From positions 1,309 through 65,308 of the forward strand of contig JAJEJD010000012.1 of NCBI GenBank assembly GCA_022828125.1: DNA of 64,000 bases, in the 5' to 3' direction. Made by a program: the position numbers and the translations under genes. The notes under the pieces are model-generated. The model saw nothing but the letters and a program-made list of their open reading frames with translations. It made no database searches and had not been told where the DNA came from. This DNA is from a bacterium (GTDB lineage: Bacteria > UBA8248). Below, one piece after another: positions 4,576-64,000 of this stretch; position 1 is the first letter of the stretch; the number at the start of each line of letters is the position of its first letter.

Positions 4576-5598
4576 TCAAACCCCGGCGGGAACCGTCTCC
4601 CGCAGGGAATATACCAAAGTCTCGAGCGTCAGGGACGGGTTGGTATTCCCGCCGTCCACGTCGCGCATGGCCTCTCCCACCCTCTCGAGGGCACGGGTTA
4701 AGCCTGCGCTCCCCCAGCGCTCTCCCATGGCGGCCAACGCCGCCCGAATGTCCGTGTGCCACAAATCTATCGCCTCGGGCGCTTCCCGGGTGATGAGTAT
4801 ATCGCGAAGCAGTCCGCGAAGCATTTCCAAAAAGAGAATTGTTTCATTTCTGCCGGAAGCCCCGCTGCCCGCCCGCTCCGTCGCGAGCGTGATGAGGGCC
4901 ACCTCGTCCGCCCGGCCCGCCGGCGCGCTCAACTCCTCCAAAAAACGCATCGCCTCCTCCCTGCGCTCGGAGAGGACCTCAACGTCGGAAGTCATGGCGA
5001 CGCCCAGCCTCCCCATGCCGAGGGAGACGAGTTTGTCCACGTCGGCGTCGTCACCGAGTCGCTCCTCCAAAATAGCGGTCAGGTCCGCTCGCGCCAGAGC
5101 CTGGAACCTGAGTCTCCTGCAACGCGAGACGATCGTCGGCAGCAGGGTGTGGAGGTTCGGTGTCACCAGTATCAATATCGTGCCTGCGCCAGGCTCTTCC
5201 AGCGTCTTGAGCAGGACATTCTGGCTCACCCGCGTCAGCAGATGGGCGTCATCGACGATGAAGACCTGGCGCATCCCCTCGTTGGGACGCTGATGGGCGC
5301 GCCGGATCACCTCCTCCCTGATCTCCTCCGCCTTGATGGAGCGAGCCCCAGCGGCGGGGCCGATGGAGACGACGTCGGGGTGTACGTTCGCGCTCACTTT
5401 CTCGCACGCCGCACAGCCTCCGCACGGCGGCGCATCGCCCACGCATTGCAAGGCCTGGGCGAACAGGCGCGCCGCGCTCGCCTTGCCGACCCCGTCGGGG
5501 CCATAAAACAGATAAGCGCCCGCCACCTGGCCGGAGGATAAGTCCCTGCGCAGCAGGTCTAGGGCCGCGTCCTGGCCGCGGATGGATTCCCAGCCCAT
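4576..5598 (-). CDS. holB: DNA polymerase III delta-prime subunit
   Basis: 340 aa. AAA+ Walker A-like GPDGVGKAS. Zinc module CGGCAACEK. SRC motif IVSRCRRLRF. Position next to tmk. Confidence 0.85.
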   Translation of the reverse strand: MGWESIRGQDAALDLLRRDLSSGQVAGAYLFYGPDGVGKASAARLFAQALQCVGDAPPCGGCAACEKVSANVHPDVVSIGPAAGARSIKAEEIREEVIRRAHQRPNEGMRQVFIVDDAHLLTRVSQNVLLKTLEEPGAGTILILVTPNLHTLLPTIVSRCRRLRFQALARADLTAILEERLGDDADVDKLVSLGMGRLGVAMTSDVEVLSERREEAMRFLEELSAPAGRADEVALITLATERAGSGASGRNETILFLEMLRGLLRDILITREAPEAIDLWHTDIRAALAAMGERWGSAGLTRALERVGEAMRDVDGGNTNPSLTLETLVYSLRETVPAGV

Positions 5599-7665: not shown

Positions 7666-9890
7666 GCTTTCGCCTCCTGCGCAACCGGGAGCGGGAGTTC
7701 GACGATGAACGTGGCGCCCGCGCCCTCCCTGCTCTCGAAGTGAATGCCGCCGTCGTGCTCGGTGATGATTTGCCGGCTCAACACGAGGCCGAGGCCGGTT
7801 CCGTTCGCCTTCGTCGTGAAAAACGGCGTGAACAAGGAGGCCTGCTCCTCAAGGCTGATGCCCTTGCCGCTGTCCGATATACGGATGGCGAGGTGCTGAT
7901 TCTCCAGTTCGGTTTTCACCAGGAGGCGACCGCCGTCGGGCATTGCGTCGAAACCGTTGGTGATGAGATTCTGAATCGCGACGCGCATTTGCGTTTCATC
8001 CAGGACAACCTCGGGGATATCCCTTTCGAGTTCCTTTTCGATTCGGATTTTCCTGCTCGCCGCCACATCCGCGTGCAGGTCCAGCAAATCCACGAGCATC
8101 TCGTTGCAGTCGATAGGCGTCTTCTCCAGACTGGGCATCCGCACGAATTTGAGATAATCGGCCGTCACCTGGGTGAGGATATCCACCTCCGCCCTCACGG
8201 ATTTGAGCAACGTCCATGCCTCGGCGGTGTCCGACTCCTTGAATTGGGCCAATTCATCGCCGAGCAATTCCGAGTTCAGGTTGATGGCCGAGAGGGGATT
8301 ACGTATGGAATGCGCCACCTGATCGCTCATCTTCCCGACGATCGAGAGCCTGTCGCGCTGGAGAACCTCTTTTTCGAGCGCCTTGCGCTCCGTAACGTCC
8401 TTCAAATACAAAATCACCTGGAGGGTCGCTCCCGAGGCGTCGAGAATCGGATAGGTGTAGTATTCCATATCCATCAGACGCCCATCTTCCCACGAAATCG
8501 ACTTTTCGAAAAAACCCGGCTCGCCGGTCGCGAACGTGTCGACCACGATGGAGCGTTCGACGAATGACTCCGGCACCGGGGTGAGCGGCGATATCTCCCA
8601 TTTCTGATCCAGCAAATCGGACGGTTCGCGCCCGAAGAGCCTGCCCATCGAACGATTGAGCATCCGTATGCGGAAATCCTTGTCCAGAATGCCGATGGCG
8701 TCCGTGATGCCGTCGAACAGCGCCTGAAGCCTTCTGTTGCTCTCCAGCACCTGTTCGGACCAGTGGATTCTATCCTCGGCCCTTATGCGTTTGCGCTCGC
8801 GATCGAGAATCAAAAGAGCCGCCAGAACCAGGGCGATGAACCCGAAACCCGTTAACAGCCAACCTTTTCGGAAAAGCCGTCCAATTAACCCGACGAACTC
8901 GGTGGACGGCGCGGTGAGGGCGAAAGTCCACTTCTCTTTCCCAACGGGAAAGTTGCTGAAAGCCGTCAGGTAACGCATACGTTTTTCTTTTTCCCCGGGT
9001 CTCAAGTCGAGGTGCCAGTCGAAACCATTCACTTCTTTCTTCATGCGCCCGGCGAGTTTTTCCAGTCTCTCATCCCGCAACTCGCGCGCGAGGGTGGACA
9101 ATTGAACCCCTTCCAGCCCGGGGATGCCCGGAGGAAGGATGATTCTGCTCTCACCGTCCACGAGCCACGCCCGCTCTCGACCTCCCGATTGGACGGGCTC
9201 GACGAAGGCGCGCGCCAGATCCGTCATGGAAATTTGCGCGTAGAGCCAGTCGCGCTTTCGCTGCGCCTCCTCCCCCTCGGTCTCAACCCCTCTGGGCGCC
9301 ACGGGCACCGCCGCGAACAAAGAGGAGACCCTTCGAGCCTCGTCGCGAATCACGAGAAGACAGGCGCCCTGCGTCCAGGAGCAGTTCGCCAGTTTTTCGA
9401 GGTATTCCTTGGGAATCGTGGCGATCTGCTGACCCGCTCCCTGCAAGTAGCCCAGTTCGCTCACGCGAAACCTTCCGCCCAGTCTTTCATACAGCCCCAT
9501 CATCACTGCCATTCGTCCGGGATGATCAGGCTCGATGGTGCGAAGAAACCCCGCGCTGTAGCGCAAAGACGCCGTGAGCGCCTCCAGGAACGAGGCGATC
9601 CGGTCGCCGGCCTGCTCCACGAGAAGAAGCTGGCGGCGGTTGGACCTCTCCTCGGCCTCGGCCTTGGTGTCCACGTAGAGACGATAGGAGAGAAAACTCA
9701 ATATCACCATCAAGATGAACGCCGCGCCTATCGTGCAGTACTGGAACTTCCGGTTCGCCCGGCGTGAACGGGCGATGCGCGAACGCGCCGAATCCCCGGT
9801 TTCATGGATCGTATCGTCTCGCGGCGGCGTCCGCCGCCCGAACCATCGCCTCCATATGACTCGAAAGGCTCTCGTCAACGCGTTCGGCAT
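7662..9890 (-). CDS. Sensor histidine kinase (membrane, PAS-containing) paired with the NtrC-type regulator
   Basis: 742 aa. Two hydrophobic segments. PAS-like region. H-box (MSDQVAHSIRNPLSAI). HATPase_c G-boxes (NLITNGFDAM, GTGLGL). 4-bp overlap with the downstream response regulator. Confidence 0.78.
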   Translation of the reverse strand: MPNALTRAFRVIWRRWFGRRTPPRDDTIHETGDSARSRIARSRRANRKFQYCTIGAAFILMVILSFLSYRLYVDTKAEAEERSNRRQLLLVEQAGDRIASFLEALTASLRYSAGFLRTIEPDHPGRMAVMMGLYERLGGRFRVSELGYLQGAGQQIATIPKEYLEKLANCSWTQGACLLVIRDEARRVSSLFAAVPVAPRGVETEGEEAQRKRDWLYAQISMTDLARAFVEPVQSGGRERAWLVDGESRIILPPGIPGLEGVQLSTLARELRDERLEKLAGRMKKEVNGFDWHLDLRPGEKEKRMRYLTAFSNFPVGKEKWTFALTAPSTEFVGLIGRLFRKGWLLTGFGFIALVLAALLILDRERKRIRAEDRIHWSEQVLESNRRLQALFDGITDAIGILDKDFRIRMLNRSMGRLFGREPSDLLDQKWEISPLTPVPESFVERSIVVDTFATGEPGFFEKSISWEDGRLMDMEYYTYPILDASGATLQVILYLKDVTERKALEKEVLQRDRLSIVGKMSDQVAHSIRNPLSAINLNSELLGDELAQFKESDTAEAWTLLKSVRAEVDILTQVTADYLKFVRMPSLEKTPIDCNEMLVDLLDLHADVAASRKIRIEKELERDIPEVVLDETQMRVAIQNLITNGFDAMPDGGRLLVKTELENQHLAIRISDSGKGISLEEQASLFTPFFTTKANGTGLGLVLSRQIITEHDGGIHFESREGAGATFIVELPLPVAQEAKA

Positions 9891-10102: not shown

Positions 10103-11152
10103 ATGGACGCCCTGGAACTCGCCCGGAGAAACCGGGAAATCCTGCGCGCCATCATCAACATTTTCGTGGATACGGGCGAACCCGTGGGGAGCCGCACGCT
10201 CTCGAAACATACGGACATCGCCCTGAGCCCCGCCACCATCCGCAACATCATGAGTGATCTCGCCGATGCGGGCTTCCTCACCAAACCCCACGTCTCCTCC
10301 GGCAGGCTCCCCACCGACCTGGGGTACCGCATTTTCGTCGATGATTTGATGGATTCGCACACCCTCACGAGCGAGGAGCAGGAATCCATGCGACTCGGCG
10401 CCTCCGCGCAGGCCGCGCAAATCGAACAGGTGCTCGCCCAGGCCACGCGCATACTTTCGGAACTCACCAACACCGCCGGTCTCGTGCTGCTGCCCGCAGG
10501 GGAGCAGCTCCACTTCAAGCACATCAACTTCGTGAAGATGTCGGAGGAAAAAACGCTGGCCGTCATCGTCTCCATGAGCGGGGTGGTGCAAAACCGCGTC
10601 ATCCCGACCGAGACCCCCATGAGCCAGGATGAGCTGAACAGGATTTCGAACATGCTGAACGAAGAGTTCAGCGGCCTCGCCCTGAGAGAGGTGCGCGAGA
10701 AGATCGTCCAGAAAATGGCTCACGCGAGGGAGGGCCTCGACACCCTCTACCGCCAGGCCCTGGAACTCAGCAAAGAGGCGCTCACAGAAAGCGAAGAGGC
10801 GCAGGAATCTATTTTCGTCGAGGGGGCCTCGCGCGTGTTCTCACAGCCTGATTTCGCCACTAACGCCGAAAAGCTCCAGTCCCTCTACCGCACGTTCGAG
10901 GAGAGGGAGAAGCTCGTACGCCTGCTGGACAAGTGCCTCGGCTCAGAGGACATCACCATTCTCATCGGTTCGGAGAACGATTTCGAGGAGATGAAGGATT
11001 GCAGCGTCGTCGCCCAGCGCTACTACATGGACGACCGCCCGCTGGGCAGCATCGGCATCATCGGCCCCAAGCGCATGCGCTACGATCGCGCCGTGTCGCT
11101 CGTGGAATGGACGGCGGACTCGGTGTCGAAATTCCTCTCCTCGGGAAAATAA
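10103..11152 (+). CDS. hrcA: Heat-inducible transcription repressor HrcA
   Basis: 349 aa. N-terminal winged helix (ILRAIINIFVDTGEPVGSRTLSK). HrcA-typical length and C-terminal region. Confidence 0.9.
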   Translation: MDALELARRNREILRAIINIFVDTGEPVGSRTLSKHTDIALSPATIRNIMSDLADAGFLTKPHVSSGRLPTDLGYRIFVDDLMDSHTLTSEEQESMRLGASAQAAQIEQVLAQATRILSELTNTAGLVLLPAGEQLHFKHINFVKMSEEKTLAVIVSMSGVVQNRVIPTETPMSQDELNRISNMLNEEFSGLALREVREKIVQKMAHAREGLDTLYRQALELSKEALTESEEAQESIFVEGASRVFSQPDFATNAEKLQSLYRTFEEREKLVRLLDKCLGSEDITILIGSENDFEEMKDCSVVAQRYYMDDRPLGSIGIIGPKRMRYDRAVSLVEWTADSVSKFLSSGK

Positions 11153-29065: not shown

Positions 29066-30130
29066 ATGATTGTGAAAACGACAGGTGTAGCCGTCATCGG
29101 CGCGGGCGGCATCGGAACGCTGAGAGCGCATTCTTGCGCGCAAATCCCCCAGGTGGACTACCTCGCCGTGTGCGACATCGTGCCCGAGAAGCTCGATCGC
29201 CTCGCGGAGTCGGTGCGGGCCGACGTGGCGACGGAGAAATACGAGGTGGCGATACGGGACGAGCGGGTGGGCGCCGTCATCGTCTCCTCCGACGAGGAGT
29301 TTCACCACGGCCCGGCGGCCCTGGCGGCCGAACTCGGAAAGCCCGTGCTCATCGAGAAACCCTTCGTCCTCGACCTCGACGAGGCGGACGACATTCTCAC
29401 GAAAGCGGATGAGTCGGGTGCGGAGATTTTCGTGGGCTACACCCAGCGCTACAGGAGGCGCTTTCTGCTTGCGAAACAGGCGGCCTTCGCCGGACAACTC
29501 GGCGACATCGTGATGGCGCTCGGCAAGATCTACGTCACGCGCGCCGTGGGCGAGGCGGTGGCGAAGCGCTCGCCCAACACCACGCCCTCCATCAACACCC
29601 TCACCTACATGGTCGACCTCATCCTCTGGTACATGGAGGGAAAAAAGCCTGTCGAGGTCTACGCCCGCGCGGCGAGCTTCGTGTTCAAGAAATACAACCG
29701 CGACGATTTCCAGTGGATGATCGTCACCTTCGACGACGGGAGCGTGGCCACGCTCGGCACGAGCTGGCTCCCGCCCCACCACTGGCCCGCCTATACGGCG
29801 ACGATGGAGATCGACCTGCAAGGCACGAAAGGCTCACTGAACGTGGACGACGCGCACCGCGACGTCATCCTCGCGCCCGAGGATCCGATTCCCTGCCCCT
29901 ACACGCCCGAACACCAGGTGAACGTGGCTTTCCTGGGTTCCGCCATGCCGGGGGATTTCGTGATGGGCGAGTTCTTCGGCCCCATGAAGGAGGAAACCGA
30001 CGCCTTCGTGCGCCACATCCTGGGAATCGGCGGGGTGGGACTCGCCACGGGCGCGCACGCCAGAGAGGTGCTCGCCCTCACCATGGCGGCGGATCGTTCG
30101 TGTAAGGAGGGCCAGCCCGTCACGCTTTAG
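29066..30130 (+). CDS. Gfo/Idh/MocA family NAD(P)-dependent oxidoreductase
   Basis: 354 aa. N-terminal Rossmann VAVIGAGGIG. EKP motif (LIEKPF). GFOR-family C-terminal domain. Confidence 0.8.
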   Translation: MIVKTTGVAVIGAGGIGTLRAHSCAQIPQVDYLAVCDIVPEKLDRLAESVRADVATEKYEVAIRDERVGAVIVSSDEEFHHGPAALAAELGKPVLIEKPFVLDLDEADDILTKADESGAEIFVGYTQRYRRRFLLAKQAAFAGQLGDIVMALGKIYVTRAVGEAVAKRSPNTTPSINTLTYMVDLILWYMEGKKPVEVYARAASFVFKKYNRDDFQWMIVTFDDGSVATLGTSWLPPHHWPAYTATMEIDLQGTKGSLNVDDAHRDVILAPEDPIPCPYTPEHQVNVAFLGSAMPGDFVMGEFFGPMKEETDAFVRHILGIGGVGLATGAHAREVLALTMAADRSCKEGQPVTL

Positions 30131-30187
30131 GGCCCGGGTGAATAACGAATAGGTTTCCTGGATAGGTAGATTGCGCTCGCATTCCCG

Positions 30188-51249: not shown

Positions 51250-51625
51250 CTCTTGGAATGAAGTCAGAATGAAGATTCAGATGGGTCGTTGAAGTCCTCG
51301 CGGACAGCCACGATACCATGTCCCCGCGCGCGCCGCCAAATCGCCGGGAACGCCCGGAGGAATCCTGTCTTGGCGGATGGAAGAGCGTCTCCCATCGAAA
51401 ACGCGCGGCCCGCCACTCCGCCTCACCCTGAGTAGCGGCGAAGCCGCGTATCGAAGGTCAAACGCGATTGATGAATGAGCGTTTGCAAATTGTTTTTCCC
51501 TCACCTGCAACCGCTCTTGATGCGCCCCGGCGAACCCTCCGCCATCGGGCTTTTTCAACAAACCTCTTAAAGGGGGAGGGAAAACTTTCTTAATCGCATC
51601 CTACGGCTTCAAGGGTTTCTAAGCG

Positions 51626-52801
51626 TTAGCGCTCAATCAGCTTCAACTGAGAACCGAATTTTACGCCTGCGACTTCGCAAGCGGTTTCGATTTTTTTCTT
51701 GATGTTCCTTGTGCTGAGATGGTGCCCTACCCACCATCCATTCCCTAAGTCCAAAGATGATCGCTCCACGAACTTGGGGTCGTCATAAAGGTCATTGCGG
51801 TCTCTTGCCACTAACCTCCGTTTCCTTCCTACTGTTTCCTTCGCAAGGCGGTCCATGAAGCCGGGATCACGGTCTTGTAACTTTTTTAATATTTCAGCCA
51901 GTGTTTCTCTCGCAGAGCTGGTATTAACAGATTCTTTTTCAAGGGAAAAACCAACAAGTTTGGATTTCTTGCCGACCGCTGATTGTGATGGGATGGAGGC
52001 TGATTTCTTCGATTGGGATGGTGAGGGAGTAGTTGATCTCCTCGACTTCGAACGGGAGGGTGCAGACATGGTATTGAAACGTAGATCCCTCAAAAACGAA
52101 TCCACCTCTTCTCGGGTATCAGCTAAGTTCGGTTTCGGCTTATGTTCGTTTTCAAACTTACTTCTCACTTCTCGCACCAGAAGATCCCTAAGAGCTTGGT
52201 TAGGAGTATCTAGCAGCTCTCGCCAGACGTCTGGAATCGCGTTGCCTATTTTCTTTTTCTCCAACTTCTTTTCGTAGACATCCTCTGCGACCTTCAAACT
52301 CTTGTAATTGATGACACGGTTTCTATCGAGGTATCTTTTAAAATCCGAGGCGTGCCCGGAAATCTCATCCTCACTCGTCAATTCCATCCGATGGAACAAC
52401 ATCTCATCAAAGGCCTCTTCATCCAGCCTAGCGAGATAAAAATCCCAGCGTCTACCGTCCGTGAGAATGAGAAACCTTGGTCTCCTATCGGCACGATAAT
52501 AGTTAAATAGCTGCTCCCTATCATCTTTGTCCCCAGGTTTTTTGGGTTCTTTTATGCCACCGATCTTTTTGGCTTCTATGAAAACTATCGGCGCATTTTT
52601 CCTGAGTAGCGCGTAGTCTGCCGAACCGTCTTTACCTTTTTCGACCTCAAATTCCGTCCTTACTTTTTCTGGATCTTGAACATCCCAACCCAACGCTTTC
52701 AGGATTGGATTGATAACTGTATCCCTGACTTGCATCTCTTTTCTAAGCAAGTCAGAATGGATATTCTTAATCGCTATTTTCAAAACTTCTTCCAGACTCA
52801 T
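51626..52801 (-). CDS. PD-(D/E)xK nuclease-domain protein (Mrr / type I HsdR N-terminal-like) with a Ser/Lys-rich linker and an unassigned C-terminal domain. Encoded on a low-GC island.
   Basis: N-terminal GSADYALL...IVFIEAKK (D-x(n)-E-x-K) restriction-endonuclease fold pattern. Gene GC ~42% versus ~65% for its neighbours. GGAGG RBS upstream. Confidence 0.5.
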   Translation of the reverse strand: MSLEEVLKIAIKNIHSDLLRKEMQVRDTVINPILKALGWDVQDPEKVRTEFEVEKGKDGSADYALLRKNAPIVFIEAKKIGGIKEPKKPGDKDDREQLFNYYRADRRPRFLILTDGRRWDFYLARLDEEAFDEMLFHRMELTSEDEISGHASDFKRYLDRNRVINYKSLKVAEDVYEKKLEKKKIGNAIPDVWRELLDTPNQALRDLLVREVRSKFENEHKPKPNLADTREEVDSFLRDLRFNTMSAPSRSKSRRSTTPSPSQSKKSASIPSQSAVGKKSKLVGFSLEKESVNTSSARETLAEILKKLQDRDPGFMDRLAKETVGRKRRLVARDRNDLYDDPKFVERSSLDLGNGWWVGHHLSTRNIKKKIETACEVAGVKFGSQLKLIER

Positions 52802-56685: not shown

Positions 56686-56825
56686 CAAAAAAGCCGCCCC
56701 GCGATTCGGGAGCGGCCAGAAACACCCGGATTCTTCGGCCCGCTTCCCTTCGCTGGAATTACCCAGTGCAGGTTCCAAGGGTTGCCCGCGACTCAAGGCT
56801 CTCAGTACATACACCCCTAGCAGGG
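56686..56825 (-). ncRNA. TPP (THI-box) riboswitch with an intrinsic-terminator expression platform, leader of thiS-thiG-thiE
   Basis: The minus strand reads GGGGTG...CTGAGAG...AACCCTTGGAACCTG...GGGTAATTCCAGCGAAGGGAAG, matching the THI-element conserved blocks. It is followed by hairpin GCCGCTCCCGAATCGCGGGGCGGC plus TTTTTTG, directly 5' of thiS. Confidence 0.75.
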
Positions 56826-56986
56826 ACTTGCTCCAAAGAGCATATACGGATGCGCCCCGACTTGCAACGTCCGAAAGGAGGCGGCGTGTGCAATTCGCAC
56901 CTTTTTCAGGTATGAATACGGAAAACCACACGATATCGCCGGGTTCAATGAGCCTCGCGCATCCCCATCGACCGAGGAGCACCCCC

Positions 56987-61464: not shown

Positions 61465-61512
61465 CGCGAGTTATCTGTCTGTTGAAAAACCTTCGTGATG
61501 GTTCTGTAGCAG

Positions 61513-61541
61513 GACAGGCACAGAGGCCTGTCTCTACTATT
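61513..61541 (+). terminator. Putative bioA terminator hairpin
   Basis: GACAGGC-acagag-GCCTGTC followed by TCTACTATT. 50 bp after the bioA stop. Confidence 0.4.
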
Positions 61542-61560
61542 GCCGACCTACTAGAGAGGA

Positions 61561-61900
61561 AATCAACTCCCCCCTTGAGGGGGAGTCGAAGAGCTAAGGG
61601 CGAAGCCCGCAAGCGATTCGGTGGGGGGACATGCCACAGGGTAAAGCTCCCCCCACCGCATCAGCCTTCGCACAAACCGCTCGGCTTCTGCGACTCCCCC
61701 TCAAGGGGGGAGTTGATCCTCCTTTTTCGTTGGTTGCGAATAACCCTCAAGGGGGGAGTGAATCTCTTCTCTACTCCGTCGCCAACTTTCCTCAAGGGAG
61801 GAGTGTATCTTGTTCGTTCATTGGTTTTTTTTACCCCCCTGACAAGGGGGGGTAGGGGGGGTTGCATTTATCCCCTGAGGAGGGGTTGTTGAAAAAGTCC
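61561..61900. repeat. Cluster of GC-rich palindromic REP-like hairpin units (left array)
   Basis: At least six units of the form ACTCCCCCC-TTGA-GGGGGAGT or CCCCCCTGACAAGGGGGG, in both orientations. 61604-61870 is an imperfect inverted copy of 63795-64000. Confidence 0.7.
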
Positions 61901-62015
61901 TGATTCAGCGGTTTGGTTCGACGGATATGAAGGCACGATGGGCCGCATATATGCGGCCCCTACACTCCCTTCAGTAAGGCGGAATGACGGCAATCCCGGC
62001 ATTGCTGGGCTTTTC

Positions 62016-62810
62016 TCAACGCCCCGCACCCGGCGCGCCCACGGCGCCCACGTCCGGCTTTTTCTGCGGCACGCCCACGGGATCGACCGGAGCGCTTCCC
62101 ACCGGCAGGAGGGTCTCCTTCGGCACGCCCACGGCGCTCGCGGGAGGCTGACCGGCGGCCGTCGCGGGCGCGCCGCTCACCGCCGCCTCAGTCGACGCTG
62201 CCGGGGGCGAGCCACCCGCCCCGGGCGCAGAAAACCTGTCCGCGATCAACTCCTCGCGCACCCGGAGCGGACCCGTGATGGCGAGCGAACCCGCGATGCT
62301 CAGCGCCTCCTGCCCCCCGATGAGCAGCACGACGCGATCGAAGAGGTCCGGGAAACTCTTGACCACGGTGCTCGCGACGCCGTAGGCGGTCATCAGCTCC
62401 GCCCACACGCCGCCGGGGTGCGCGTCCCTCAACGTCTCGTCGAAATCGACGTAGGCGATCCCGTCCGGCCCCGGAAAGACCGCGCGCAGCTTCGCACCCT
62501 TCGGGACAACCGGCGCGTATCCCTCCCCTTTGGGTCCCTCGATGAGAGCGGACAGCAGGTTGCGCAGGGTATCGACGTTGTCCTTTCCTATCTCCACCTC
62601 CACGGTATATGGAACCAGCAGATCTTCTTCCGCGCCGGTGAAATACAGCGTCTTCTTCACGCCAGGCGCGCGCGCTGCGTCTCGCCGCTCGGGGTCGAAC
62701 GCGGCGTCGCGGCCCCGCTCCAGGAAGTCCAGGACGGCTTCCTGAAAATTCCAGACGAGCGCTCCGCTCACGGCGACGATCAAGACGGCGAGCGCGAGTT
62801 TCTTCACCAT
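62016..62810 (-). CDS. GerMN-domain (sporulation/germination GerM-like) membrane-anchored protein
   Basis: 264 aa. N-terminal TM LALAVLIVAVSGALVW. GerMN-like core (TLYFTG...LVPYTVEVE...). Ala/Pro-rich C-terminus. 1-bp gap after the amidase gene. Confidence 0.55.
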   Translation of the reverse strand: MVKKLALAVLIVAVSGALVWNFQEAVLDFLERGRDAAFDPERRDAARAPGVKKTLYFTGAEEDLLVPYTVEVEIGKDNVDTLRNLLSALIEGPKGEGYAPVVPKGAKLRAVFPGPDGIAYVDFDETLRDAHPGGVWAELMTAYGVASTVVKSFPDLFDRVVLLIGGQEALSIAGSLAITGPLRVREELIADRFSAPGAGGSPPAASTEAAVSGAPATAAGQPPASAVGVPKETLLPVGSAPVDPVGVPQKKPDVGAVGAPGAGR

Positions 62811-62811
62811 C

Positions 62812-63714
62812 CTAGCGGCCCTCCCCCGCCGGGGCGGCGTTTTGCTCGACGGGCGCGTCCGGCTCTGACTGCGGCGACTCGCCCGCCGCGGCCCCGGTTT
62901 CAGGAGTTGCAGGCTGCTCTGACGATACCGGAGCCTGTGTTGACTCTACGGGTGCGGTTTCGGCCGGCGCGGGCGGTTTGGGCGGCAGGTCTTCCGTGAG
63001 ACCCGCGAACTTGAGCACCGCCCTGGCGAGCGCCGTGAGATAGGTGTCCTCTTCCGTTATCTCGCTCAGGCGCGCCTCGTCCTCAGGCGTGCTGATGACG
63101 CCCAGGCTCACGTAGGCCGCGGGCATGCGCGCGCCTTCCAGGTCGCGCACCGCCAGAATGCGCACCGGCGGTTTTTCGCCCGCTCGGATGGCGGCGAAGC
63201 GCCTCTGGAGGCTCAGGGCGAAGCGGCGGTTCGAGGCCAGATGGATGTTCTGGCTCCGCTGCCAGCGGAACGCCACGGCCCGGGCCGCCTCGCCCGCCAC
63301 GCGCGGCGGACGCCTGGGCGCCGCCACCATGATGGCCGGCCCGCGCGCGCCCGGCCGCCAGGAGGCGTCCGCATGAAGGGTGAGGAACAAGGAGGCGGCG
63401 TTGTAGTTCGCCACCGAGACGCGCTGCACGGCCGTCATCTCCGTGTCGGCCTCGCGCGTGAGGATGGCCTTCACCTCGGGGCGTCTTGCGAGGAGCGCGG
63501 CCAGCATCCCCGCCGCGCGGAGCGTGAAATCCTTCTCCAGGAGCAGCGCGCCGCGGCTCCCCGCATCCCGCCCCCCGTGGCCGGGGTCGATCACCACGAC
63601 GAAAGGAGCCGATGCCGAGGGGCCGCCCGGCTTCGCGGGTCCGGCGAGGACGTCGGCGCACGGGATGAGGCTCCCGAGCCACAGCGCTGGAATGATGAGG
63701 CGGAAATGTCGCAA
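62812..63714 (-). CDS. N-acetylmuramoyl-L-alanine amidase (Amidase_3 family, AmiC/CwlD-like) with signal peptide and Pro-rich C-terminal tail
   Basis: VVIDPGHGGRDAGS zinc-binding motif. SLFLTLHADA. Signal peptide MRHFRLIIPALWLGSLIPCADVLA. Confidence 0.8.
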   Translation of the reverse strand: MRHFRLIIPALWLGSLIPCADVLAGPAKPGGPSASAPFVVVIDPGHGGRDAGSRGALLLEKDFTLRAAGMLAALLARRPEVKAILTREADTEMTAVQRVSVANYNAASLFLTLHADASWRPGARGPAIMVAAPRRPPRVAGEAARAVAFRWQRSQNIHLASNRRFALSLQRRFAAIRAGEKPPVRILAVRDLEGARMPAAYVSLGVISTPEDEARLSEITEEDTYLTALARAVLKFAGLTEDLPPKPPAPAETAPVESTQAPVSSEQPATPETGAAAGESPQSEPDAPVEQNAAPAGEGR

Positions 63715-63789
63715 GGGGTCTCCTCCCGTTCAATCGGCACAAACTACCATTTCATGGAAGGGGAAACCAGACGGGGGTGGCGCAGGCTC

Positions 63790-64000
63790 TCGCCTTGAAA
63801 ACCAACCCCCCCTACCCCCCCTTGTCAGGGGGGTATGAAAAAGCAACCCCGCAAAAAAGAATCAACTCCCCCCTTGAGGGTTATCCCTTCACGCACGGGA
63901 TATACAATCAACTCCCCCCTTGAGGGGGAGTCACAGAGGCCGAGCGATCTGTGCGAAGGCCGATGTGGTGGGGGGAGTTTTTCTGTGGCATGTCCCCCCA
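63790..64000. repeat. Cluster of GC-rich palindromic REP-like hairpin units (right array, truncated by the window end). Inverted and mirror-ordered relative to the left array.
   Basis: Units CCCCCCTTGTCAGGGGGG, ATCAACTCCCCCCTTGAGGG and ATCAACTCCCCCTTGAGGGGGAGT. The last ~95 bp are an ~88% reverse-complement match of 61604-61716. Confidence 0.7.

Follow-up and report, generated by a model that had tools for sequence, protein, structure and literature searches.

The N-acetylmuramoyl-L-alanine amidase and GerMN genes near the right end of the window (the whole 64,000-nucleotide stretch of DNA analyzed here) probably form a fixed operon whose flanking spacers have been filled by nested small mobile repeats. 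The mirror-image frame around the genes would then result from this build-up together with local copying (probability about 0.75). We base this reading on the anatomy of the repeats, on synteny, on the presence or absence of elements at orthologous sites, on conserved structure and on insertion-sequence junctions. The parts of the locus, in window coordinates, are the following.

61479..61491, plus strand: solo IS1182-type terminal repeat CTGTTGAAAAACC directly after the bioA stop codon, found by a pattern scan
61506..61537, plus strand: GTAG...CTAC hairpin GTAGCAGGACAGGC-ACAGA-GGCCTGTCTCTAC of the classical REP shape, read from the sequence
61540..61565, plus strand: conserved 25-nt linker before hairpin H, the outer part of a 49-nt inverted repeat
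61566..61713, plus strand: element A, an inverted dimer of the structured unit U with 31-nt terminal inverted repeats (97%); its parts are H1 (61566-61586), stem-loop S1 (61587-61620), the central hairpin GGTGGGGGG/CCCCCCACC (61621-61656), stem-loop S2 (61657-61692) and H3 (61693-61713)
61739..61759, minus strand: unit B, a partial H hairpin CCCTCAAGGGGGGAGT, 46 bp from H3
61760..61804, minus strand: inverted linker copy and unit C, a degenerate H hairpin with CCTCAAGGGAGGAGT at 61790-61804
61834..61861, plus strand: module D, hairpin CCCCCC-TGACAA-GGGGGGGTAGGGGGGG, also present in 12 loci of other genomes
61872..61900, plus strand: small hairpin CCCCTGAGGAGGGG, then module E TTGTTGAAAAAGTCC, an IS1182-type terminal repeat
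61940..61963, minus strand: module F, GTAG plus the palindrome GTAGGGGCCGCATATATGCGGCCC, REP-like
62016..62810, minus strand: gene for a GerMN-domain protein of 264 aa (Pfam Germane, 1.9e-14)
62812..63714, minus strand: gene for an N-acetylmuramoyl-L-alanine amidase of 300 aa with a TTG start (Pfam Amidase_3, 2.8e-27)
63715..63790, minus strand: leader or promoter-proximal segment of the amidase gene, conserved and repeat-free
63806..63833, plus strand: module D', the reverse complement of D, from the inverted-pair search
63865..63884, plus strand: unit B', a partial H hairpin ACTCCCCCCTTGAGGGTTAT that mirrors B (20 nt, 100%)
63911..64000, minus strand: another copy of element A in the opposite orientation to 61566-61713, truncated where the window stops

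The GerMN gene call is identical on the source contigs, and the amidase gives weak AmiA/B/C-type matches to NCBIfam models. None of the 117 loci collected by the hairpin pattern held an amidase or GerMN gene, and relatives of the locus (L121–L128) were collected through GerMN homologues. All eight keep the order and orientation amidase (+), GerMN (+), bioA (−), with GerMN 92–57% identical. The wider order is permease (−), amidase (+), GerMN (+), bioA (−), methyltransferase (−), cyclase (−), with the permease gene absent from L122. The two most distant relatives, L126 and L127 (GerMN 64% and 57%), carry the genes but no repeats: GerMN there adjoins or overlaps bioA (spacer of 0–4 bp), and the upstream spacer of 158–171 bp contains no H or D modules. 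Judged by this conservation, the amidase and GerMN genes appear to be an ordinary, vertically inherited two-gene operon that is fixed in position. The analysis suggests that the host lineage is Nitrospinota, related to metagenome-assembled genomes (MAGs) whose names point to a sponge source.

The spacers on either side are far more changeable. Where repeats are present, downstream spacers vary between 219 and 797 bp and upstream spacers between 336 and 1089 bp, and each has a different set of modules. The closest relative, L121, shares the outer frame of the upstream spacer and has a different 70-nt centre; at this position the lineage of the window has about 300 nt consisting of C', B', A and B. 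Elements are thus present or absent at orthologous sites even between these two. In L123 and L124 a complete IS1182-family element lies inside the upstream spacer. The repeats are absent from about 75 nt before the amidase gene and about 170 nt beside the permease gene, and the segment 63715..63790 is nearly invariant across L001 (the source contig), L121, L122 and L128. Such repeat-free stretches suggest that the repeats avoid functional DNA.

The preliminary description had proposed that the genes and arrays together might be a non-autonomous, MITE-like mobile element with cell-wall remodelling genes as its cargo. Such an element would be a giant MITE or a composite transposon. Repeats of about 190–300 bp do bracket the genes, both inverted and direct, and their modules come from mobile families. 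Nevertheless, we consider this explanation hardly credible: gene order, orientation and neighbors are identical in the eight relatives, including those free of repeats, the amidase–GerMN pair was not found at any other site, and no transposase lies inside the segment. Furthermore, array content varies among close relatives as separate small insertions predict. The cell-wall genes are therefore not the cargo of a mobile element, which makes the result for the cassette ordinary and removes a false lead.

The two arrays had been described as reverse complements of each other, and this is borne out by the match of 61562-61869 to the reverse complement of 63798-64000 at 85–93% identity. The mirrored order of the sub-blocks is also real, as a MAFFT alignment of 61540-61900 with the reverse complement of 63770-64000 is collinear except for one 43-nt indel, which corresponds to unit C. 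A repeat search of the window gave the inverted pairs 61643-61717/63907-63981 (75 nt, 91%), 61821-61869/63798-63846 (49 nt, 90%), 61622-61652/63970-64000 (81%) and 61698-61725/63853-63880 (89%), with the hairpin units spaced 45–46 bp apart. ACTCCCCCCTTGAGGGGGAGT occurs four times in the 64-kb window at up to three mismatches, always at this locus, where shuffled sequences predict no occurrence; CCCCCCTGACAAGGGGGG occurs twice, once per flank. The hairpin 21-mer is likewise confined to this locus within the window. Some details had to be corrected. The units, called perfect palindromes before, have 8-bp stems with 5-nt loops, and the two genes cover 1.7 kb (62016-63714) rather than 1.9 kb. The arrays do consist of hairpin repeats, but of several different modules mixed together instead of one uniform kind.

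The right array is indeed cut by the window end, and on the source contig (window position = 72811 minus L001 position) the spacer measures 703 bp, most of it beyond the window. The second copy of element A continues there for about 56 nt and is 91.5% identical to the left copy. Further out lie units B'/C', a second D', module E and half an H hairpin. This array is palindromic in its own right and repeats the left array both ways: in inverted orientation over 187 nt (85%) and 44 nt (93%), and more faithfully in direct orientation over 144 nt (95.8%). Because direct and inverted copies coexist, the geometry is not the simple long terminal inverted repeat that had been thought to frame the cassette.

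The longest exact matches between the flanks are 53 nt (inverted) and 43 nt (direct), and exact matches of this length should suffice for homologous recombination. The segment might therefore be recombination-prone, inverting or being deleted in part of the population as a form of phase variation or copy loss, and the loss of the permease gene next door in L122, at direct copies of a D-bearing element, fits such an idea. On the other side, three assemblies from different samples (L001–L003) and all relatives show the cassette present in one orientation at the assembly level, and no recombinase or invertase domain was found among the genes predicted up to 10 kb away on each side, three of which have no Pfam match. 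Since the promoter region of the amidase gene is inside the segment, inversion would not obviously switch expression. We regard such inversion or loss of the segment as very unlikely. The repeats account for assembly breaks at this place: L002 and L003 both terminate within the arrays.

Of the three readings offered earlier, only a local repeat cluster duplicated around the cassette fits the data, as the flanks share lineage-specific linkers. In our proposed model, the spacers on either side of the operon would be permissive zones that accumulate two interacting families of non-coding mobile repeats. One of them consists of an IS1182-family insertion sequence and its short derivatives, which have common ends (CTGTTGAAAAAG.../...CTTTTTCAACAG) and carry the D hairpin. 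The transposase scores 361 bits on the NCBIfam IS1182 model (cutoff 270). The ends of the E/D-type elements are those of the full-length IS1182-family element in L080, L123 and L124, and module D is the inner part of elements with IS1182-type ends in other genomes. The solo repeat CTGTTGAAAAACC matches the ends of the IS1182-family element in L080 and L123, and relatives have the same motif at the equivalent position.

In the DNA collected for this analysis, every IS1182-type junction that could be read falls within an H or D hairpin, at both ends of three copies and at one end of two more. Mobility is also supported by the 234-bp element at 5463-5696 of L001, which has perfect 13-bp IS1182-type ends and lies inside a split H hairpin. 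IS1272, an IS1182-family member of Staphylococcus, was reported to target inverted-repeat structures, with no target duplications reported (PMC5678879). The insertions described here likewise enter stem-loop targets, but the targets are C-run/G-run hairpins of another repeat family and the loop is duplicated on both sides (compare PMC5678879). The hairpin loop region is directly duplicated around the insertion sequence in L080 and L123, whereas L124 and the site L001 5463 have inverted flanking loops, so simple target duplication is inadequate as an explanation.

According to the model, IS1182-type elements would insert into the C-run/G-run hairpins (H and D) and leave hairpin halves on both sides. 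Since the two families have palindromic interiors, and an insertion breaks a hairpin in two or duplicates it, arrays that are nested and mirror-ordered would follow automatically. The short derivatives carry more target hairpins, which would allow the arrays to nest within themselves. Hairpin-specific insertion thus offers a concrete and testable model for arrays that build themselves in mirror order. The same elements may also remove DNA: the breakpoints of the missing xanthine/uracil permease gene in L122 fall within two direct copies of the D-bearing element, which points to such repeats as probable mediators of deletions in this lineage.

In the lineage of the window, a block of about 150–190 nt (D', linker, C', B') would then have passed by copying or gene conversion between the two spacers, upstream and downstream, which would account for the direct as well as the inverted resemblance of the flanks. 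We infer this order of events, as well as an enzyme that moves unit U and any effect on expression. The main evidence for exchange is the 144-nt direct block, which is 95.8% identical including its linkers; the orthologous linker of L122 differs and L121 has no such linkers. Lineage-specific linkers on both flanks argue for a recent exchange of sequence between them. Alternatively, the flanks could resemble each other only through independent insertions of one composite family. The left element A shares 91.5% identity with the right copy, no more than it shares with those of L063 (94%) and L007 (93%), and L092 has a related composite of B', A, B and D at 71% identity. Two independent insertions of a similar composite are not fully separable from local duplication or conversion, but the linkers of the 144-nt block weigh against them, and independent insertion as the sole cause appears unlikely.

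The second family is built from unit U, which consists of ATC-ACTCCCCCCTTGAGGGGGAGT, a hairpin variable in sequence but constant in structure, and GGTGGGGGG. It can stand singly, be reduced to partial hairpins that are spaced by 46 bp and joined by a conserved linker, or, often, form the inverted dimer of about 150 nt, element A. GGTGGGGG follows the H hairpin within 140 nt in 150 of 167 cases. The linker consensus ..CCGACCGACGAGAGAGAAAAATC adjoins H in other genomes too, and the linker at 61540..61565 has an inverted-repeat partner at 61737-61785 (78%). The exact 21-mer was found in at least 117 stretches of species-representative genomes, so it is neither private to this locus nor restricted to one lineage; both the 21-mer and the full unit U are present in at least seven phyla (MAGs). 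A genome-wide scatter of the hairpin, raised earlier as a possibility, holds in so far as more copies lie at other places on the source contig, related genomes carry it at many sites, and other phyla have it too. Unit-type elements are 75–94% identical across Nitrospinota, Nitrospirota, Acidobacteriota and Latescibacterota. For non-coding sequences in four phyla, such identity implies horizontal spread between phyla of a non-autonomous element.

The structure of both forms is strongly conserved. In an alignment of 21 copies of element A, compensatory changes occur in 16 of 51 pairs, a number that none of 500 shuffles reached, and there are 73 double-change cells against at most 5 in slid controls. 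Unit U gives 134 double-change cells (4–17 in slid controls) in 76 copies from many phyla, again with none of 500 shuffles as high. As DNA, the two strands of element A fold with −54.6 and −55.0 kcal/mol (z about −9.7). A search of the window against Rfam at the gathering threshold gave no relevant match, nor did a search by E-value of the locus, 18 loci from other phyla and a long version from Gemmatimonadota; all that these searches returned was a chance match to a miRNA precursor, at 40 bits with a cutoff of 137.

Covariation of this strength across phyla raises the question of whether U and A are cellular elements, for example non-coding RNAs, transcript-end stabilizers, terminators or protein-binding hairpins, with arrays that regulate their neighbors. 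Stem-loop S1 has G..A tetraloops and tandem GA/GA mismatches, terminator-like matches are enriched (17 versus 3.2 expected), and in two cases the location is between convergent gene ends. However, the compensations are nearly all Watson–Crick with hardly any G-U, and the two strands fold equally well, which indicates selection at the DNA level. Proper T-runs are missing from the hairpins, copies lie in either orientation or are fragmentary, and they come and go between close relatives while the genes stay unchanged. Together with the lack of an Rfam match, this makes a cellular function quite improbable.

Element A behaves as a minimal MITE (miniature inverted-repeat transposable element, a small non-autonomous transposon) or REP doublet. 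A 325-nt composite (E, A, B and E, in inverted orientation) lies between convergent genes in L033, and no such insert is present at the orthologous site of the window, 30130-30178. For A and U, no clean target-site duplication was readable. The roughly 0.9 Mb of DNA collected yielded no transposase bearing U-type ends. When all ORFs of the 117 loci were clustered, the recurrent families encode ABC transporters, short-chain dehydrogenases, enoyl-CoA hydratases, a phage integrase (five loci) and DUF559, and the ORFs between inverted U pairs are ordinary ones (glycosyltransferase, PIG-L, ankyrin protein, PNP oxidase and others). Several candidates were rejected. A DDE_Tnp_1_4 element that adjoins a U copy in L038 is bounded by ends of a different, unrelated kind and is missing from the sister site in L070, and an ORF cluster from six loci was an antisense or repeat-derived artefact. 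A phage origin was set aside, the 21-mer having no match in a viral contig collection. A CRISPR-like array was dismissed because the units are degenerate, only three occur per array and the spacers are conserved linkers of 25–30 nt.

The repeat family U/A corresponds to no Rfam family, and a literature search on sponge symbionts, the hairpin sequence, Versatilivorator and Nitrospinota found no paper that describes unit U; the nearest kinds are REP/REPIN and MITE. REP families, as in Escherichia and Pseudomonas, are normally lineage-specific, and REPIN doublets are mobilized by RAYT transposases. REP/BIME and REPIN sequences are likewise short, GC-rich, extragenic hairpins in many copies, with alternating orientation, conserved linkers and inverted doublets, often located between convergent genes and used as targets by insertion sequences. 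The REP/BIME-like label given earlier is thus fair for the shape of the unit but not for a GTAG head or lineage restriction: H and U begin with ATCACTCC and only module F has GTAG, and the unit is common to several phyla. No RAYT (Y1 transposase) turned up near any copy among the recurrent or repeat-flanked ORFs of the roughly 0.9 Mb covered. Unit U also differs in having three parts, a hairpin, a covarying hairpin and a G-run. Insertion sequences such as IS1397 and ISKpn1 target REP sequences and are similarly specialized for repetitive palindromes of the host, although both the insertion-sequence family and the repeat family differ here. Like these elements, MITEs such as Correia of Neisseria, ERIC, RUP and Nezha are non-coding and 100–250 bp long, have terminal inverted repeats at their ends, fold strongly and exist in many copies whose presence or absence is polymorphic, and the D-bearing element shares the ends of its full-length insertion sequence. 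For U/A no parent insertion sequence was found, and the conserved structure extends beyond the terminal repeats to the internal hairpin.

A broader view is possible, though we hold it only tentatively. U and A might be an undescribed family of structured DNA that spreads horizontally across phyla through an enzyme acting on folded hairpin ends and provides landing pads for the IS1182-type element. The two would form a self-amplifying pair that constructs palindromic arrays and causes genes, for example the neighboring permease, to be lost and gained. Many carrier genomes appear to be sponge-associated, judged by MAG names, and the carrier phyla probably share the same animal host. If the link with sponges is true, the repeats would both mark genome plasticity in such communities and offer a mechanism for it.

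At the downstream end of the operon, L122 has a related hairpin at the position equivalent to 61506..61537. Module F lies about 55 nt beyond the GerMN stop codon and may act as a terminator hairpin; its exact 24-mer is found in eight loci, all of this lineage, and folds as DNA with −10.8 kcal/mol (z −4.0).

GC-rich hairpin units occupy both spacers flanking the GerMN and Amidase_3 gene pair (the cassette), the left array lying downstream, toward bioA, and the right array upstream of the amidase gene.

Features of the mirror-image arrays
62016-62810, minus strand: GerMN gene (gene call and Pfam)
62812-63714, minus strand: Amidase_3 gene (gene call and Pfam)
61643-61717 and 63907-63981: inverted pair, 75 nt, 91% (repeat search)
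61821-61869 and 63798-63846: inverted pair, 49 nt, 90% (repeat search)
61566-61713: element A, first copy; two head-to-head units U, G-run pairing with C-run
63911 onwards: element A, second copy, in the right array

Modules (a prime denotes the reverse complement)
B and C: partial or degenerate H hairpins with linkers
D: CCCCCC-TGACAA-GGGGGGGTAGGGGGGG, a C-run hairpin
E: TTGTTGAAAAAGTCC, terminal repeat of an IS1182-family element
F: GTAGGGGCCGCATATATGCGGCCC, classical REP shape, GTAG plus GC-rich palindrome

The repeat search also returned several shorter inverted pairs, as well as direct units spaced 45-46 bp apart. When the left array was aligned pairwise with the reverse-complemented right one, the two were collinear except for a single 43-nt indel. 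The 21-mer ACTCCCCCCTTGAGGGGGAGT and the 18-mer CCCCCCTGACAAGGGGGG, with about zero chance matches expected, are confined to this locus within the 64 kb. All the above bear out the mirror-image arrays proposed in the preliminary description.

Three contigs encode the GerMN protein, one of them the 209-kb metagenome scaffold L001. L001 carries the window in reverse complement, so that subtracting an L001 coordinate from 72811 gives the window coordinate. The scaffold completes the right array past position 64000 as a 703-bp spacer from the amidase gene to a divergent xanthine/uracil permease gene. Two copies of the left array lie in this spacer: an inverted one, in stretches of 187 nt (85%) and 44 nt (93%), and a closer-matching direct one of 144 nt (95.8%, L001 8607-8750 vs 10926-11068). 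The spacer is also palindromic in itself (D' at L001 8628-8667 vs D at 8969-9008, 95%). Between the flanks, exact matching extends to at most 53 nt in inverted and 43 nt in direct orientation. The contigs L002 and L003 terminate within these arrays, as expected for multi-copy repeats. The breaks fall exactly at repeat boundaries: position 1 of L002 coincides with the start of the 144-nt direct repeat, and L003, for which both ends were noted, terminates inside D and F. The breakpoints of independent assemblies show that the repeats fragment assemblies of this lineage from metagenomes.

The C-run/G-run hairpin H is ACTCCCCC-CTTGA-GGGGGAGT, preceded by a conserved 25-nt linker, and the structured unit U consists of ATC, H, C, a stem-loop S and GGTGGGGGG. 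GGTGGGGG lies within 140 nt after H in 150 of the 167 H occurrences in the fetched DNA; S closes with at least four Watson-Crick pairs in 88% of those 150 copies vs 14% after shuffling. In an alignment of 76 copies across many phyla, double-change cells in the S stem number 134 vs 4-17 in slid controls, a covariation reached by none of 500 shuffles. Element A, an inverted dimer of U of about 150 nt, shows compensatory change at 16 of 51 pairs among 21 full copies (73 cells vs at most 5). As these compensations are almost all Watson-Crick (three wobble cells only) and the DNA folds equally well on the two strands (-54.6 and -55.0 kcal/mol, z about -9.7), we read them as the mark of selection acting on hairpins in the DNA, or on the two strands alike, and not on a single RNA.

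Some copies of A carry a 26-nt hairpin (TCTGGCTTCCCGAGGGGAAAGCCAGA) in place of the last 5 nt of H (GGAGT), at L001 8750-8775, at L122 4975-5000 and 5090-5115, and in L092, L036 and L007; its stem shows compensatory changes between genomes (TCGAGC/GCTCGA, TCGGTC/GACCGA). The orthologous A copies of the window and L122 differ in this replacement. In L110 (Ca. Poriferihabitaceae, about 5340-5400), a full U follows tandem repeats of ATCACTCCCCCGCAACC, which joins the 5' half of H to a short spacer, so the hairpin half can amplify in tandem.

Exact 21-mer matches occur in at least 117 stretches of species-representative genomes, and none was found among viral sequences. Full A cores are present in Nitrospinota, Nitrospirota, Acidobacteriota (including Ca. 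Versatilivorator) and Latescibacterota; single U units occur also in Gemmatimonadota, Gammaproteobacteria (Pseudohongiella; Ca. Poriferihabitaceae), Alphaproteobacteria and a few MAGs with names pointing to lake, stream or gut. Mis-binning cannot account for this spread, because many matches come from chromosome-level MAGs several megabases long. Going by isolate and family names, many carriers appear to be sponge or coral symbionts. An ankyrin-repeat protein gene in the unclassified 'bacterium' MAG L108 (6687-7367, minus strand) is flanked by two U units; eukaryote-like repeat proteins are typical of sponge symbionts, and the gene fits such a habitat. A longer non-coding element of about 330 nt, conserved between Gemmatimonadota and Latescibacterota, has one U at its core (L012 about 1360-1760; also L022, L066, L088, L051 and L091); in it, S bears one to four copies of an CCCTGAGCNTGTCGAAGGG insert and about 80 nt to the left and 90 nt to the right are also conserved. 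This element had no Rfam match, nor did the repeats match any Rfam family in the window, the locus, loci from other phyla or the long Gemmatimonadota version. Literature searches found no paper on this repeat family. It is a new family of the REP/MITE kind, for which such cross-phylum spread and structural conservation are unusual.

GerMN homologues form a graded series by identity, from which we fetched eight loci (92% down to 57%). The order amidase(+), GerMN(+), bioA(-), methyltransferase(-), cyclase(-) is kept in 8/8. The two relatives at the low-identity end have GerMN and bioA stop codons that abut or overlap, an upstream spacer of 158-171 bp, and no hairpin modules in the spacers. The closer relatives have spacers of 219-1089 bp with a different module set in each, and in two of them a complete IS1182-family element precedes the amidase gene. 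The 75 nt conserved before the amidase start codon are untouched by repeats, and about 170 nt adjoining the permease gene are likewise spared. Because gene order is kept in all eight relatives, the most distant two are repeat-free and spacer contents vary, the cassette is ancestral and immobile and the repeats are later arrivals. Relatives with the same genes and no flanking repeats were among the points that the preliminary description had named as evidence against its proposal of a MITE-like mobile or invertible segment, and that proposal is rejected here: the mirror-image frame is real, and it reflects the nested accumulation of repeats, with local copying, on either side of an operon fixed in place.

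The upstream frame of the window lineage (half H, E, small hairpin, D', D) is shared by its closest relative, L121. The upstream centre is a different 70 nt in L121, about 300 nt of C', B', A, B in the window lineage, and one intact long hairpin in L122. Downstream, L122 and the window have an orthologous C', B', A array in common; in L122 its A has, at either end, the 26-nt hairpin in place of the final 5 nt of H. The likeness of the flanks might alternatively reflect two independent insertions of a shared composite, as A matches its copies in L063 and L007 at 94% and 93%, and L092 contains a composite of similar make-up. Because the downstream C' linker of the window agrees with the window's own upstream copy and that of the L122 orthologue differs, we infer that sequence was recently copied from one spacer to the other by duplication or gene conversion. 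Of the earlier suggestion that a local cluster duplicated around the cassette, only this copying between spacers holds.

The transposase of the E-ended element scored 361 bits against NCBIfam's IS1182 model, for which the cutoff is 270, and the element ends read ...CTGTTGAAAAAGCCCCGG and CCGGGTTTTTCAACAG....

IS1182-family insertion sequence, ends CTGTTGAAAAAG.../...CTTTTTCAACAG
L080 2972-4520
L123 1140-2700
L124 1390-2870
L063
L005

Every readable junction of the full element in the fetched DNA (both ends in L080, L123 and L124; one end in L063 and L005) lies within an H or D hairpin, as with IS1272, another family member reported to target inverted-repeat structures (PMC5678879). The hairpin loop region is repeated on both sides of the element, directly in L080 and L123 and inverted in L124. 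Inverted flanking loops are reverse complements (TTGA vs TCAA) at some IS1182-type insertions, for which a simple target duplication would not account. A complete 234-bp element at L001 5463-5696, in which D' and D lie between perfect 13-bp IS1182-type ends, is inserted within a split H hairpin with its linker. Between convergent genes in L033, a Nitrospinaceae MAG with 82-93% DNA identity to window 26.9-32.3 kb, lies a 325-nt composite of E, linker, A, B and inverted E; the orthologous window site (30130-30178) is empty. The repeat family appears to serve as a landing pad for a hairpin-targeting insertion sequence. Insertion into palindromic targets by elements bearing more targets would be a simple route to nested, mirror-order arrays.

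This IS1182-type transposase is the only one tied to the system, and its ends are module E, not U. ORF clustering and Pfam scans of repeat-flanked ORFs in the fetched DNA found neither a Y1/RAYT transposase nor any other transposase with U ends. The GTAG-palindrome family (F), which would be the natural candidate for a RAYT-type system, is multi-copy in this Nitrospinota lineage and distinct from the H/U family (window 61940-63 and 61506-37; L123 4950, L128 4980, L121 7425, L122 7646, L020, L063); an exact 24-mer of F is present in eight loci of the lineage. A promoter scan found nothing. Terminator-like matches are enriched (17 vs 3.2 expected), without proper T-runs, and the hairpins between GerMN and bioA, which are convergent, may possibly function at transcript ends.

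What differs in presence between genomes is the xanthine/uracil permease gene rather than the amidase cassette (L001 6888-9025 vs L122 2852-2990). The L001 segment, equivalent to about 63786-65923 and reaching past the window end, has the gene bracketed by two direct copies of a D-bearing element. L122 is without it, its sequence jumping from L001 6876 to 8978 through a single hybrid element, and the distant relatives L126 and L127 also lack it. This would fit a gene gain followed by deletion via inter-repeat recombination.

A further repeat cluster in the window (51405-51479 and 51550-51585) contains a CCCTGAG...CGAAGG motif related to the insert in other phyla, with 12 BLAST matches to other genomes, and, ahead of an H-like half hairpin, a solo IS1182-type end (CTTTTTCAACAA). 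It adjoins a low-GC stretch (51626-52801, minus strand; 0.46 vs about 0.63) that encodes a protein with HSDR_N, the N-terminal domain of the type I restriction enzyme R subunit, and was probably acquired horizontally. A TPP riboswitch (56728-56828, minus strand; Rfam RF00059, 56.3 bits) lies directly upstream of thiS, thiG and thiE-type genes.
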